DNA from: Pseudomonadaceae bacterium
GTDB lineage: Bacteria > Pseudomonadota > Alphaproteobacteria > UBA2136 > UBA6156
Assembly (NCBI GenBank): GCA_024236095.1
Contig: JACKLD010000012.1
Coordinates: 149,695 to 213,694 of the forward strand
Reading direction: 5' to 3'
Length of the DNA: 64,000 bases
The position numbers are program-made. Numbering within the stretch: the stretch's first letter is position 1; each line of letters starts with the position of its first letter. Below are positions 42,001 to 60,000 of this stretch, one piece after another.

Positions 42001-45000
42001 CCACGCCATCGTACGAGAGCTTGCGACGCTCCTTCACTGGCAAGGCGTCGTTGTCCAGAATGTTCAGGCCGTCGATATAGTTGTAGCCGTGCGCATAGGC
42101 ATGGGGCTGGGTGAACGGCGTTTCGGGCGCCAACACCAGCTTGTGGCCGGGGGTCAGCTGCAAGGGCTTGTAACCCCATTCTTCCGCACAGCGGGCGTGC
42201 TGGGTCAGGTGCCCCGGCTCGCCGTGCACTGGCACCACGTAGGTGGGCTTCAGCAGGCTGTACATGTGTTGGATTTCCGGGCGGCTGGCGTGGCCGGAAA
42301 CATGGGTTTCGCGGTCGGTCAGCTCGGTCACCACCTCGGCGCCGCGCACGTACAGGCCGTTGATGGTATTCAAAATCGCCCGCTCATTGCCGGGAATCAT
42401 GCGGGACGACAAAATCACCGTATCGCCCTCGTCGATGCGCAACCCGCGCACCTCTTGGCCTTGGCTCAAACGGGTCAGGCTGGCTGCGGGCTCACCCTGC
42501 GTGCCGCTGGCAAACACCAACACCTTGTGCGGCGGAAGCTTGGAAGCCTCCTCCGCTTCCACAATATAACCTTTCAATGCGGCAGGGGTATAGCCGAGCT
42601 CTTTGGCGTAACCCAGCATCTTGTTGACCGTCCGCCCCAGAAAACACACCTTGCGGCCATGCTTCATGGCAATTTCCGCCACATTCAGCGCGCGGCCCAC
42701 GTGGCTGGCAAAAGCGGCAAAGAATACCCGCTGCTTGCTTTCGCCAATCAGCTTGTCCAGGTGCTCAAACACCGCTTTTTCGCTGCCGCTGGGCTTCATC
42801 GCAAAAATCCCGGTGCTGTCGCCCAACACCGCCAGCACGCCCTGTTTGCCGATGGCCTTCCAACGCTTTTCATCGGTCTGCTGGCCAAACGGCGCATGCT
42901 CGTCAAACTTGTAGTCACCGGTGTGCACCACCGTGCCGTAGTGGGTGGTAATCGCCAACCCGAACGCTTCGGGGATACTGTGCGCCACCCCCACATATTC
43001 CACCTTGAACGGCCCGACTTCAATCGTTTCGCCCGGCTTGGCGGTATTCACTTCGCCCTTGGCGGGCTTGATGCCCAGCTCACGCAATTTGTTTTCCATG
43101 CTCAGGCGTGAAAAACGGGTGGCGAACACCGGCGCGCCGCCAAAATCGTCCCACATGTAGCCGATACCGCCGATATGGTCTTCATGGGCGTGGGTGATAA
43201 ACACCCCCACGATATCCTTGGCATGCTCGCGCAAAAAGCGCGTGTCGGGGATAATCACGTCCACCCCCGGGGTGGTTTCGTCGCCAAAGCTCACCCCGGC
43301 ATCCACCACGATGTATTTGCCGTCGCACTCATACACCATCATGTTCATGCCGATGCGGCCCACGCCACCCAAGGCAAGGGCGGCAAAATGTTTACGTTTG
43401 CTCATATGTTCAATCTCACTTCATCAAATCGGCCGCCTGCGTGCGTCTTTATGCTTGTGCGCAGCGCCCATGGGCGGCCAACGGTTCATTCCGGAGAGAT
43501 TGACGATACCAACGCACAGGCCCGCAAACGCGCTAATGCGTATGCCCCTGCGCGATGACATCACCGCTATGGATATGGTGCACCTCTCCGGCGTCATCCA
43601 CCACAACCAAGGCGCCCTCGGGCGTCAGCCCGCTGGCTCGGCCTTCCAGTACGGTTCCGGCATCTTTCTGCCAGCGCACCGTTTGGCCTATCGTGCAGCA
43701 GTTCTGCACATATTCGTCTGCAAGCGCAGACCAACCTGATTCCTCATATAGGGCAAGCACATCCTTTAAGCAAGCGGAAAGCGCCACCAGCATCTCCTCC
43801 CGACCGGGGGCAGCGCACACATCCGCCAACGGAATACCCGGAAAACTCTCCAACATGGCGGGGCTACGCGTCAGGTTGAGGCCGATACCTATCAACGCAA
43901 CCGGATTGGGCCCGGTTACCTGCTCAATCAGAATCCCCGCCAGTTTTTTGCCGTTTAACAACACGTCGTTGGGCCATTTGAGGACAAGGCCGGTGGCGGG
44001 CGGCGTTAGCTTGCACAGCGCGCGCAACAACGCCACGCCCACCACCAGCGGCAAATGCGGGCCGGTATGGCGGGTGGCAATGAAGGTGGCGGCAAAGCTG
44101 TGACCGGGGAACATCTGCCATACCCGTCCCATGCGCCCGCGCGCGGCGGTTTGCTCGCCTGCCATCACCACGGCCAAATGCGGCGCCCCATCCTTGGCCC
44201 ACCGCGCCGCCACATCCATGGTAGACGTGGTGGTCGGCAAATACCGCAACCGCGCCAAAAGGGCAGGAGAAAGTTTATCTTCGCGCAACGTCATATCGTC
44301 AGAATAACGCCGTGGCCGCAGGCAATGTCAAGTTGGAAAGCAGCCCCGGCAGTACTCCCAACACCAGCACCACTGCCACGGCCGCCAGTGCCACCAGCAT
44401 CAGGGGCGATTGCTGCGCGGATTGCACCGGCTTGGCCACCACTGCCACCTCGGCAGAAGGCACGTCGAAGTACATGGTCTTTACCAGCCACAGGCTGTAA
44501 AACGCCGCCACCACGCTGGCCATCACCCCTACCACGGCCAGCCACGTGTACCCCGCAGCCACCAACGGGGCAAACACGTTCAGCTTGGCCATAAAGCCTG
44601 CAAACGGCGGAACTCCGGCCATGCTGAACAACAACATCAACAGCATCGTCGCCAACCACGGACGCCGCCGCGCCAGCCCCGCCAAACCATGCACCGTTAC
44701 CGGCTCCTGCAGGTTTTCGAGCTCAATCAGCACCGCAAACAACCCGACCATGGTCAGCCCGTACACCGCCAGATAAAACAACACCCCGCCATGCCCCTGC
44801 GGGCTGGCCGCCACCACGCCGCACAGCACGAAGCCCACGTTGGCGATGGTACTCCACGCCAGCAAGCGCTTCACATCGGTCTGGCGGATGGCCACCACAC
44901 TGCCCACCACCATGCTGGCGGCCGCCAACACCGCAAGCGCGGGCTGCCACAGCTCTTGCAGCCCTGAAAGCGGGCCTTCCAACAACCGCACCAACAGTAC

Positions 45001-57000: not shown

Positions 57001-60000
57001 AAATCCCAGTACCCATTTAGTGCAGTCCATATCTAACGATTGAATATTACCGTTAGCACTGATGTTCCCAATAAATGCTAGCATTGCAACTAAAGCTCCA
57101 CCATTGCAAAGGAATGAGTATTTAATTGCACTATGCCCCAACTCAATACGGGATTGAGTCATCATCGTTTCAAATTCATTTGCCATCTCTCAACTTCTCC
57201 TCAAACAACTCCCGAAAATGCCGCAACGTCCCCTGCACCGGCCACATCGCGCCGTCGGCGAAGGCGCAGATGGTGCGGCCCTCAATCTTCTTGGTGATGG
57301 CATAAAGCTGGTCCAGCTCGTCTGCCGTGCCCTTGCCTTCGGCGAGGCGGTGCATCAGGCGGTAGACCCAGCCCACCCCCTCACGACACGGGGTGCACTG
57401 GCCGCAGCTTTCGTGTTTGTAAAAGGCGGCGATGCGGGTCATCACCCGCAGCACGTCGACATCCTTGTTCATCACCACCACGGCGGCGGTGCCAAGGCTG
57501 CTGCCCAGCGGTTTCAGGCCGTCGAAGTCCATGATGGCCTGTTCGGCCAATTCCTTGGTCAGAATCGGCGTGCTGCTACCACCGGGAATGATGGCTTGCA
57601 AATTGTCCCAGCCGCCAATCACGCCGCCCGCATATTCGTCAATCAACTCGCGCAGCGGGATGCTCATCGGCGCTTCCACGTTACACGGATTGTTGACGCT
57701 ACCGGAGATGGAAAAGATCTTGGTGCCGTGGTTGTTCTCCCGCCCCCAACGCGTCCACCAATCCAGCGGATGCTTCAAAACCGGCGGCACCTGCGCGATG
57801 GTTTCCACGTTGTTGATGGTGGTGGGGCAACCATACAACCCGAAGCCCGCAGGGAACGGCGGCTTGAGACGCGGCTGGCCCTTTTTGCCTTCCAGGCTTT
57901 CCAGCAACGCGGTTTCTTCGCCGCAAATGTAGGCCCCGGCCCCCAAGTGCACGTACACGTCCACGTCGACGCCGGTGCCTTGGATGTTCTTGCCCAAAAA
58001 GCCCGCGTCATACGCCTCGCGGATGGCTTGGTTGAGGCGGCTGCTCTCGTCGTAATACTCGCCGCGCACGTAAATATAGCCCGCCTTGGCACCCAGCGTG
58101 TAGCAGCCGACAATCATCCCCTCCACCAACGTATGAGGGTCGTTGCGCAGAATATCGCGGTCCTTGCACGTCCCCGGTTCGCCCTCGTCGGCGTTGCAAA
58201 CAAGGTAATGCGGCTTTCCGGACTGCTCCGGTTTGGGCATAAAACTCCACTTCATCCCCGTGGAAAACCCCGCCCCCCCGCGCCCGCGCAACGCCGACTT
58301 CTTCAACTTGTCGATGTGTTCGGCCGGCGCCGTCTGCAGCAGTTTCTTCAGCCCCTTGTACCCGCCGCGCTTTTGGTACCCCTTGATACCCCAATCCCCC
58401 GCCCCATCCAGATTCGGGAAGCACTTGTCTTCGAGTTTGAGTTTGGGGAGTTTTTTGGTCATGACGTATACCCCCCACCGCTAATCGGGTCGACATCGGC
58501 AGGCGGGGTGTCCACCAACTCCGAGACGCCCTTGGATTTGAGGTCTTTCAAAATCTGCTTGGTCTGTTTGGCATCCAGCTTGGTGTAGTAGTGGCTGGCA
58601 CCGTTTTGGGCGGTCACCTGCATCATCGGCGCGCCCACACAGGCACCCAAGCACTCCACCTCGGTGAGGGTAAACGTACCGCACGGGCTGTGGCCTTGGT
58701 GATGATCGTCCAACTCGCCAATTTTGGCCTGTTCCTTCACCGCCTGCACAATCGCATCGCTGCCGCGCACCATGCAGGCGCAGTTGGTGCACACCTGCAC
58801 GTGGTACTTACCCACCGGTTTCAGGTTGAACATGGTGTAAAACGTCGCCACCTCATACACGCGGATATAGGGAAGGTTCAGTGTGTCGGCCACCAGCTGC
58901 ATGGCATCCACACTCAGCCAACCACCGAACTCCCGCTGCGCCAGATGCAGCAGCGGAATGGTGGCACTACGGCTGCGCTCTTTCGGGTAGCGGGCCAGAA
59001 TATCCTTGATGGCAGCCTTGGCCTGCTTGCTCCACGCCAAATCCAACCCCAGCGGCTTGGGGGTTTGCCCGACAGCGGCAGTGTCGTCAATGCGGATGGT
59101 CGGCATGGGCGTTGTTCTCTTTGCCTCGCGTTGTACGCCAACCATGCTAGCACCGCAACGGGGCCCATGGCAGCACACTGCATGTCATAAAGGCATGTGT
59201 GACAAACACAAGGCCCTCCGGAAGAGGGCCCTGTGTTCTCAATTTCCTTAGTCTTTGTCGCAAATGCGTTGCCAAATCCCGCGCTTGGCCACATGGCCGA
59301 ACACGTAAATGCCGCCCAAAAAGCTGTAAACGGTAACCGCCGCCATAAACCAGAAGGCCGGATCCGCCGAAAGCTCGCGCAGCGCCACCCCCGCACCCGC
59401 CGACAGCATCATCAGCTGGAACTTGATCTGATGAACAATTGCCGGATTGATAAGATACATCACGCCCACCTGCACCGCCATCATCGGCAGCGTCACCCAG
59501 AAGAAGGTGCGCCACGCCACCGCCCACCACAACCGCACGGCCGTGCCCCAAAAACCGGTACAGCACCCCTTGGTGCCGCAACATACGGGTGCGACATGGT
59601 CGTGCCCGCAGCAGTCATCTTGCCGGGCGGCGGTCTTGGCAGTTTTGGTCGGTTTGGCTTTGGCCATGGGTTGCTTCCTTTTTGTTACCGTTTATAACAT
59701 GTCATTTGACATTCCGGCAGGCCCCCGCCTTGCGGTTGGCCTCCACAATCTTCATCAACTCGCGGGTCCGGCAGCTGTTGCCCTCATGCAGCTGGGTCAA
59801 AAAATTCCGCTCCAGCATCAGGCTCAGATTGGGCTCGCCATTGGCGCACACGACCTTTTCATCCAGCTCGTCAATGCGCTGCTCCAAATCGCGGCAGGTC
59901 TGCATGATATCGGCGGCGTAAGCCAGCGGTGCTACCACCGTCATCACCACAAACAGGCCAAATGTATGCATGGCTCCACTCTGGCGGAAAAACCGCTCGA

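Follow-up and report, generated by a model that had tools for sequence, protein, structure and literature searches.

Putative Ssn nuclease units, their NTS hairpins and other small genes at the junctions of an intact nuoE-N-birA operon in an uncultured alphaproteobacterium

SsnA of Neisseria meningitidis, a single-domain GIY-YIG protein of 94 aa, binds the Neisseria Transformation Sequence (NTS, CGTCATTCCCGCGMAVGCGGGAATCYRG, which includes dRS3) solely as single-stranded DNA and cleaves upstream of that sequence, at a distance of a few nucleotides (Chenal et al. 2025, PMC11893778). Mutagenesis targeted Tyr6, Tyr17 and Glu64 of the protein and, in the NTS, revealed as critical a GTC in front of the palindrome and the C that follows the latter (PMC11893778). 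Ssn homologs (CDD cd10448) are distributed across bacteria and flanked by SRM motifs, on both sides in 42% of cases (PMC11893778). What has been demonstrated for Ssn in Neisseria is that it modulates transformation, rather than a role in transposition; the authors of the Ssn/NTS study have put forward, as a hypothesis, an insertion-sequence-like nature of the NTS-ssn-NTS arrangement (Nat Commun 2025, PMC11893778). A literature search returned no later paper on Ssn mobility. A related phenomenon are the minimal mobile elements (MMEs) of Neisseria, where varying cassettes of whole genes occupy the space between conserved flanks and which are linked to dRS3-containing repeats and NIME arrays (PMC3898611). 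Here we describe a 64-kb stretch of contig JACKLD010000012.1 (positions 149,695 to 213,694, forward strand), referred to as the window, in which three putative Ssn-NTS units lie within the nuoE-N-birA operon encoding complex I subunits of an uncultured alphaproteobacterium.

We consider it likely that this operon is functional and that the gene junctions of its clade serve as landing pads, where Ssn-NTS units, clade-resident hitch-hikers and lineage-specific acquisitions coexist. Assignment with Pfam gives the minus-strand order nuoE-F-(124-aa open reading frame (ORF), GIY-YIG gene)-G-(GIY-YIG gene)-H-I-(repeats)-J-(GIY-YIG gene)-K-(172-aa ORF)-L-(cutA)-M-(GNAT gene)-N-birA. Of the nine junctions between nuo genes, seven are occupied, I-J by repeats alone, and the inserts add up to about 3.2 kb in a region of 14.9 kb. 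The occupied junctions measure 887 nt (F-G), 488 nt (G-H), 133 nt (I-J), 404 nt (J-K), 526 nt (K-L), 307 nt (L-M) and 489 nt (M-N). Every insert shares the minus-strand orientation of the nuo genes, and the 124-aa ORF overlaps the nuoF stop codon by 11 nt. An initial annotation, made from the letters of the window, had already described this order, the co-orientation and the tight packing, all of which could be confirmed. From the packing we infer that the inserts are probably expressed by read-through and co-transcribed with nuo. In a sequence scan, terminator-like and promoter-like sites within the operon did not exceed chance level, and an Rfam search of 43-64 kb gave zero matches.

The encoded GIY-YIG proteins comprise 96, 96 and 94 aa with a single domain (PF01541, residues 3-78, E 1e-13 to 2e-17). 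Tyr6, Tyr17 and Glu64 are invariant in eight aligned homologs, with identical numbering in the 94-aa protein, and all three genes are flanked by 28-nt NTS/SRM hairpins. On the basis of size, residues and flanking repeats the three genes can therefore be assigned as putative Ssn nucleases (Ssn1 to Ssn3). The Ssn1 unit (56395-56779, minus strand) consists of an NTS at 56748-56775 (-), ssn1 at 56433-56723 (96 aa, PF01541 E 1.3e-13) and an NTS at 56399-56426 (+); the SRM regular expression matches on each side, and the inverted repeats 56395-56430 and 56744-56779 are 36 nt long and 100% complementary. In the Ssn2 unit (53700-54171, minus strand) an NTS at 54124-54151 (-) and one at 53720-53747 (+) enclose ssn2 at 53779-54069 (96 aa, E 3e-15). 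These copies exhibit the hairpin variant ATCCCCGC/GCGGGGAT and match the SRM pattern, and the inverted repeats (53700-53756 and 54115-54171) extend over 57 nt with 82% complementarity. The Ssn3 unit (51008-51391, minus strand) is composed of an NTS at 51349-51376 (-), ssn3 at 51053-51337 (94 aa, E 2e-17) and an NTS at 51013-51040 (+), with inverted repeats of 36 nt (51008-51043 and 51346-51381, 92% complementary). Both NTS copies of each unit turn their 5' CGTCA end outward. Additionally, direct repeats of 18 nt border Ssn3 at 51392-51409 and 50990-51007, in which the last five nuoJ codons and the stop codon are duplicated (15 of 17 matches, p<0.005 compared to shuffles). The three proteins share 45-63% pairwise amino acid identity.

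The presence of GIY-YIG genes at these junctions had been noticed in the initial annotation, but their reading frames had to be revised: the first and third are the ORFs of 96 and 94 aa, not the longer out-of-frame ones, and the second starts at 54069, not at 54237. NCBIfam revealed no further family above its cut-off for Ssn1 to Ssn3, and the nearest solved structures belong to UPF0213 (E 7e-6). The alternative of homing endonucleases in group I introns was rejected. The sole NCBIfam match, TIGR01453, reaches 19-23 bits compared to a cut-off of 56 and is limited to the GIY motif, and no intron RNA was found with Rfam.

The hairpins themselves are highly enriched. A degenerate SRM pattern gave 11 matches in the window compared to 0.94 in shuffled sequences, with nine of the 11 in the nuo region; a looser repeat pattern gave 16 compared to 0.54. 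Strict NTS matches amount to two copies, both in a doublet at the nuoI-J junction. The hairpin core can be written as CGTCATTCC[A/C]GCG-MAV-GC[T/G]GGAATCCAG. In an alignment of 13 copies columns 8-10 (GTC) and 31 (C) are invariant, and the stem of 8 bp is 94% paired with two compensatory pairs. The Ssn paralogs are paired with hairpin variants of their own, with Ssn1 and Ssn3 falling into one stem class: ATTCCAGC/GCTGGAA(T/C) for Ssn1 and Ssn3, ATCCCCGC/GCGGGGA(T/C) for Ssn2, and ATTCCCGC/GCGGGAAT for the doublet.

Several copies of the repeat occur without a nuclease gene. The doublet at nuoI-J (52037-52106) consists of two inverted 29-nt copies, 52037-52065 and 52078-52106, which are 12 nt apart and 100% complementary; the calculated folding energy is -40.9 kcal/mol (z -14.5). 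What had been annotated as an empty repeat is indeed gene-less, and its identity is now given as an NTS doublet. Next to it a truncated NTS left end (52128-52163, minus strand) overlaps the nuoI stop codon and shares 97% identity with the left end of the Ssn3 unit. A solo NTS at 46267-46294 lies within the last approximately 19 codons of nuoM, encodes TVIPAQAGTQ and directly precedes the GNAT start; with its flank (46262-46296) it matches the left end of the Ssn3 unit over 35 nt with 97% identity. Just upstream of this NTS, nuoM contains a perfect tandem duplication of 30 nt (46320-46379), with MDMWRAPVEA as the ten repeated residues. Outside the operon, rsmA/ksgA (36423-37319, plus strand) exhibits an in-frame insertion of about 24 aa containing a complete NTS hairpin at 36867-36894, and residues 138-164 of the RsmA query align to just three residues of PDB 4jxj.

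Two further forms of the repeat were observed. A half-NTS array of four sites with 30-nt spacing (CTGCGTCATTCC) is located in the stretch that leads from the Ssn1 unit to the start of nuoG (56305-56414, plus strand). Its coding-strand form is GGAATGACGCAG, and a GGAGG-like stretch follows each site. Recurrent events at one end of the element may have left these sites as footprints, or the array may stem from slippage. The intergenic DNA of the lptD-surA-SBP-rsmA cluster (33886-33913 and 35481-35508, and also 33964 and 35354) contains another hairpin variant, GTCATCCCGTTGA[C/A]GAACGGGATCCAC, accompanied by NTS copies and half-sites, all on the plus strand; this variant is missed by the published SRM regular expression.

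For comparison, relatives were collected in a NuoH scan with one genome per species; L092 is a Logan contig from a separate search. The closest relatives by NuoH are all metagenome-assembled genomes (MAGs) of uncultured Alphaproteobacteria (81% identity for L001, 71-75% for L002-L007), and L092 shows 73%. Inserts are present at several nuo junctions each in L001-L007, L054 and L092, with variable occupancy. The more distant L008-L015 (NuoH 53-63%) possess tight, uninterrupted nuoE-N-birA operons. The description of so many insertions as unusual was therefore overstated, since all members of the nearest clade carry several of them; unidentified reading frames (URFs) in the Paracoccus and Rhodobacter clusters have reportedly been known since the 1990s as well.

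At nuoI-J, where the window has the doublet and the truncated end, L001 contains an NTS-ssn-NTS unit that is complete and has inverted repeats of 35 nt. The same junction has no spacer in L054 and is filled with other genes in L003, L004 and L006; this comparison of occupied and empty sites is one between distant relatives, with NuoH identities of up to 81%. When metagenomes were scanned with NuoJ for strain-level relatives that have empty sites, no match was closer than 60% identity. L007 has Ssn homologs at F-G as well as upstream of nuoE. The units of the window, L001 and L049 share terminal inverted repeats around a nuclease gene. One Ssn homolog of L007 (2748-3320) follows the first approximately 19 codons of nuoE and is accompanied by the hairpin ATTCCGGC-GAAG-GCCGGAAT, which is devoid of the CGTC tag. 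At least 22 nt of the 5' coding sequence of nuoE are repeated on the far side of this homolog, and a run of N masks the remainder.

Different cassettes between the same flanks were observed at K-L, I-J, G-H, F-G and E-F within the set of the window, L001-L007 and L092. The gene cutA is located at L-M in the window and at K-L in L002, L003 and L005, and it is absent in L004, L006 and L007. GNAT genes are found at M-N in the window, at H-I in L002 and at E-F in L003, P-loop kinase-like genes at G-H in L001 and at I-J in L003 and L006, MazG-like genes at I-J in L004 and L092, and small lipoprotein genes at E-F in L002, L004 and L007. At K-L a conserved lipoprotein and a membrane protein are encoded in L002, L004, L005, L006 and L092. 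Low-GC ORFs also occur in the junctions of relatives, at K-L in L092 (33% GC) and at L-M in L007 (38% GC). The K-L junction of L092 (4499-6510) comprises four genes: a 159-aa ORF of 33% GC, those of the lipoprotein and the membrane protein that reside at this junction, and a homolog of the 172-aa gene.

The GC content at third codon positions (GC3) divides the genes into classes. The nuo genes range from 0.76 to 0.82, cutA with 0.74 is native-like, the GNAT gene (0.50) and the GIY-YIG genes (0.54-0.59) are intermediate, and the 124-aa and 172-aa ORFs are foreign-like with 0.35 each. These two correspond to the low-GC inserts mentioned in the initial annotation, with an overall GC of 0.38 and 0.36, respectively. 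The 124-aa ORF (56812-57186, minus strand) encodes a predicted membrane protein. It is an orphan ORF (ORFan): neither Pfam nor NCBIfam contained a family for it, and a protein database search returned only the protein itself.

The 172-aa ORF (50150-50668, minus strand) encodes a lipoprotein-like or secreted protein. Among 1.84 billion representative proteins it has a single homolog, P0123 (E 3.6e-16), the gene of which lies immediately upstream of nuoL at the K-L junction of L092. Because this sole homolog occupies the same junction, the 172-aa gene is assigned to a putative K-L-junction-specific family of secreted proteins despite its foreign composition. Its similarity to the K-L lipoprotein of the relatives is a weak profile similarity (hhalign probability 83%). 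The cutA gene (47844-48158, minus strand, PF03091 E 6e-33) shares ATGA overlaps with nuoL and nuoM. The GNAT acetyltransferase gene (45747-46247, minus strand, 166 aa, PF13673 E 8e-19) matches NF007338 with E 1.7e-16, which is below the family cut-off. This gene overlaps both neighbours, the nuoM stop with its own start (ATGAGTAA) and the nuoN start with its own stop (ATGA).

Judged by composition and distribution, cutA and the K-L secreted-protein family are putative clade residents, and the 124-aa ORFan and the GNAT gene are putative lineage-specific acquisitions. The initial annotation had named ancestral, native-GC genes in close relatives as the finding that would contradict its insertion reading. 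Such long-term residents were found for part of the cargo, namely cutA, with its native GC3 and its place at K-L in relatives, and the K-L secreted-protein family, with its sole homolog at the same junction of L092; they were not found for the Ssn units, the GNAT gene and the 124-aa ORFan. The proposal of a repeat-driven insertion hotspot holds in part. The location of nine of the window's 11 SRM/NTS hairpins in the nuo region, the three NTS-bounded units, the doublet and the solo NTS before the GNAT gene speak for it.

The complex I genes themselves are complete. The ten nuo ORFs all have their full length and a complete set of Pfam domains, and they align end to end with those of the relatives at 49-89% identity. 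The insertions are all intergenic or at the extreme 3' ends of genes, with stop codons and ribosome-binding sites either retained or present in duplicate. On the minus strand, nuoE was assigned to 58459-59106 (PF01257, E 1e-49), starting with the ATG at 59106 (MPTIRID...), which agrees with the N-terminus of NuoE in L007; the mechanical ORF reaches a GTG at 59178. It is followed by nuoF (57176-58462, PF01512/PF10589, 80-83% identity to relatives), nuoG (54183-56288, PF00384, PF22117 and others), nuoH (52651-53694, PF00146, E 9e-128), nuoI (52158-52646, 4Fe-4S dicluster families, 89% identity to L001), nuoJ (51392-52024, PF00499), nuoK (50673-50987, PF00420), nuoL (48155-50146, PF00361/PF00662), nuoM (46240-47847, PF00361) and nuoN (44299-45750, PF00361). 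The birA gene (43533-44294, PF03099/PF02237) lies 4 nt downstream of nuoN on the same strand, a linkage also found in L002, L004, L005, L007 and L010-L015. The locus is an intact and probably functional nuoE-N-birA operon, and relaxed selection, which had been offered as a cause of the insertions, is not supported because all nuo genes are intact.

How the junctions acquire their contents can be outlined as follows. Intercistronic junctions would take up small sense-oriented genes, which would then be expressed by read-through. By analogy with Neisseria SsnA, Ssn would bind the NTS hairpin in DNA that becomes single-stranded in replication, transformation or repair, and nick just 5' of it. In an NTS-ssn-NTS unit both outer boundaries would receive a nick, the two lying on opposite strands, which could allow copying or movement of the unit; doublets of the NTS and its solo copies would be gene-less derivatives of such units. 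Cassettes would also turn over among the junctions through homologous recombination of their conserved nuo flanks, similar to the minimal mobile elements of Neisseria. In its most far-reaching form, which we regard as less likely than not, NTS-ssn-NTS units would be autonomous mobile elements that depend on single-stranded DNA and encode a minimal GIY-YIG nuclease. They would prefer sense-oriented intercistronic sites in highly expressed operons and give rise to doublets and in-frame NTS copies, and their hairpins would seed cassette exchange. We know of no transposition chemistry for such GIY-YIG enzymes; if this form of the model is true, the chemistry would be one that is absent from known bacterial insertion sequence (IS) families.

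Evidence that Ssn-NTS units move is circumstantial and comparative. The units are found at different junctions among relatives (I-J in L001, before nuoE and at F-G in L007, and F-G, G-H and J-K in the window), and loss from a common ancestor alone would require many ancestral copies, with none present in the outgroups. The duplicated nuoJ end at Ssn3, the NTS copies in frame in rsmA and in the nuoM tail, which imply that the repeat inserts, the doublet and the truncated end, whose junction is occupied in relatives, and the Ssn3-type left end before the GNAT gene point in the same direction. A number of observations weigh against mobility. No target-site duplication of fixed length was found, and significant flanking repeats are restricted to Ssn3 (18 nt) and L049 (13 nt, offset). 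No near-identical Ssn copies are present within the 64-kb window, nor is there a sign of recent copy-and-paste in it, and identical Ssn proteins (P0065, P0005) on several metagenome contigs always share one context, revealing no recent jumps. Differences in presence and absence could be deletions instead of insertions, and both the cleavage specificity and the role in mobility are carried over from Neisseria. For the cargo, the K-L family member in the window has 36% GC, compared to 53% in its homolog. Several of these points would fit immobile, domesticated host genes that restrict NTS-bearing single-stranded DNA or modulate recombination near nuo and have been lost differentially: the copies are old and divergent, most units have no target-site duplication, the conserved catalytic residues suggest selection on the protein, and the function established in Neisseria concerns transformation. 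In view of the changing junctions, the in-frame repeats and the 18-nt duplication, we consider domestication rather unlikely.

For the remaining cargo (cutA, the GNAT protein, the K-L secreted protein and the 124-aa membrane protein) it is improbable that the genes lie in the operon for a functional reason, as factors dedicated to the assembly of complex I or accessory to it. In favour of such a role, the ATGA overlaps would couple translation, and cutA and the K-L family recur in the nuo operons of the clade. The same family appears, however, at shifting junctions and is missing elsewhere, as seen for cutA; the cassettes include unrelated housekeeping types (GNAT, NUDIX, MazG-like and P-loop kinase-like), the 124-aa gene is an ORFan of foreign composition, and the relatives at 53-63% NuoH identity contain none of these genes. 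Decay of the operon under relaxed selection, with a dispensable complex I tolerating insertions, could draw on the seven occupied junctions, the repeat-derived C-terminal tail of NuoM and its 10-aa duplication, but given ten complete nuo ORFs and insertions confined to the positions described above it is highly improbable. We attach just as little credit to a metagenome assembly artefact, in which repeats would have joined unrelated contigs. Two independent Logan assemblies cover the junction of nuoF and the 124-aa ORF with 100% identity over 56750-57883, including nuoF, ORFan and NTS sequence; because both read sets reproduce it, the low-GC gene is not chimeric. Both Logan contigs stop inside the NTS, which indicates a multi-copy repeat that breaks short-read assemblies and lends the artefact what support it has. 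Against it, the gene order is colinear with that of all relatives, inserts overlap nuo stop and start codons, and the locus tags H6922_01130 to 01175 are spaced as in our gene model. Taken together, landing-pad junctions in a functional operon remain the explanation we favour.

The region upstream of nuoE differs from that of the relatives, where NuoB and NuoD are encoded immediately upstream. No NuoB or NuoD motif was detected in the whole window, of which 4.8 kb lie upstream of nuoE, in agreement with the initial annotation, which had placed a Cys-rich membrane protein there in place of nuoA-D. A split operon or a large cassette at D-E may account for this alike. The Cys-rich protein (59248-59667, minus strand, 139 aa), recognised from ORF and sequence, has native GC (GC3 0.76), and neither Pfam nor NCBIfam provided a family for it. 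It is part of a single-strand series that continues with an 89-aa ORF and GDSL-like, NodU/CmcH-type carbamoyltransferase and SxtJ-like genes. The last three of these (60013-63908, minus strand; a GDSL/SGNH-like protein, a 618-aa carbamoyltransferase and a membrane protein) are co-oriented, unrelated to complex I and without counterpart at the loci of the relatives. In the gap between the Cys-rich gene and nuoE (59212-59230, minus strand) a GC-rich hairpin, GGCCCTC-TTCCG-GAGGGCC, is followed by the T-rich tail TTGTGTTTGT. This terminator-like structure suggests that nuoE-N is possibly a separate transcription unit. The label "Pseudomonadaceae" of the MAG is doubtful: the nearest NuoH proteins belong to Alphaproteobacteria, and the arrangement nuoN-birA-RNase J is alphaproteobacterial. 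This label and those of L004 ("Pseudomonas fluorescens") and L005 ("Blastochloris viridis") are probably wrong.

An essential respiratory operon thus carries about 22% foreign or hitch-hiking DNA without the loss of any structural gene. Together with its relatives, the locus offers a natural test set for the Ssn/NTS system, which was described only in 2025, and its three cognate pairs are ready substrates for specificity assays on a nuclease family of biotechnological interest.

Compared to the Ssn/NTS system of Neisseria, the window shares the single-domain GIY-YIG proteins of 94-96 aa with Tyr6, Tyr17 and Glu64, the 28-nt hairpins and the NTS-ssn-NTS arrangement, as well as the occurrence of the repeat as solo copies and clusters in intergenic DNA. 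It differs in its host, an uncultured alphaproteobacterium of 60% GC, in being known from sequence alone, in the three divergent paralogs with hairpin variants of their own within 6 kb of an essential operon, and in an orthologous junction that is full in one relative and contains the doublet alone here. The REP/REPIN-RAYT systems (IS200/IS605-like Y1) are similar in the small nuclease gene between inverted hairpins, the gene-less doublets and the recognition of hairpins in single-stranded DNA, which is presumed for the proteins of the window. Since these are GIY-YIG and not HUH Y1 enzymes, REP/RAYT is a functional analogue and not the same family.

With regard to the operon, Xu, Matsuno-Yagi and Yagi (1993) and Dupuis et al. 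(1998) are said to have described URFs scattered through the nqo cluster of Paracoccus denitrificans and the nuo cluster of Rhodobacter capsulatus, reportedly co-oriented, at E-F, F-G, G-H and I-J, and with birA downstream of nuoN. The colinear nuo genes, the co-oriented non-nuo ORFs and birA after nuoN are alike in arrangement; the window is also occupied at J-K, K-L, L-M and M-N, and part of its cargo consists of Ssn-NTS units. The minimal mobile elements of Neisseria resemble the locus in the varied cassettes between conserved genes and in the association with dRS3 repeats. They differ in that the sites here lie inside one operon, that genera and species instead of strains are compared, and that recombination is deduced. 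The Rickettsia palindromic elements, reportedly described by Ogata et al. in 2000, likewise place a palindromic repeat in frame in coding genes, here rsmA and the nuoM tail, but belong to another repeat family, and two coding insertions were seen in the window. Nothing in the locus is categorically new, as known kinds of elements explain the pattern. What it adds to the described systems are three cognate pairs of Ssn and hairpin in one essential operon, circumstantial evidence for their turnover, and the nuo junctions as cassette sites.

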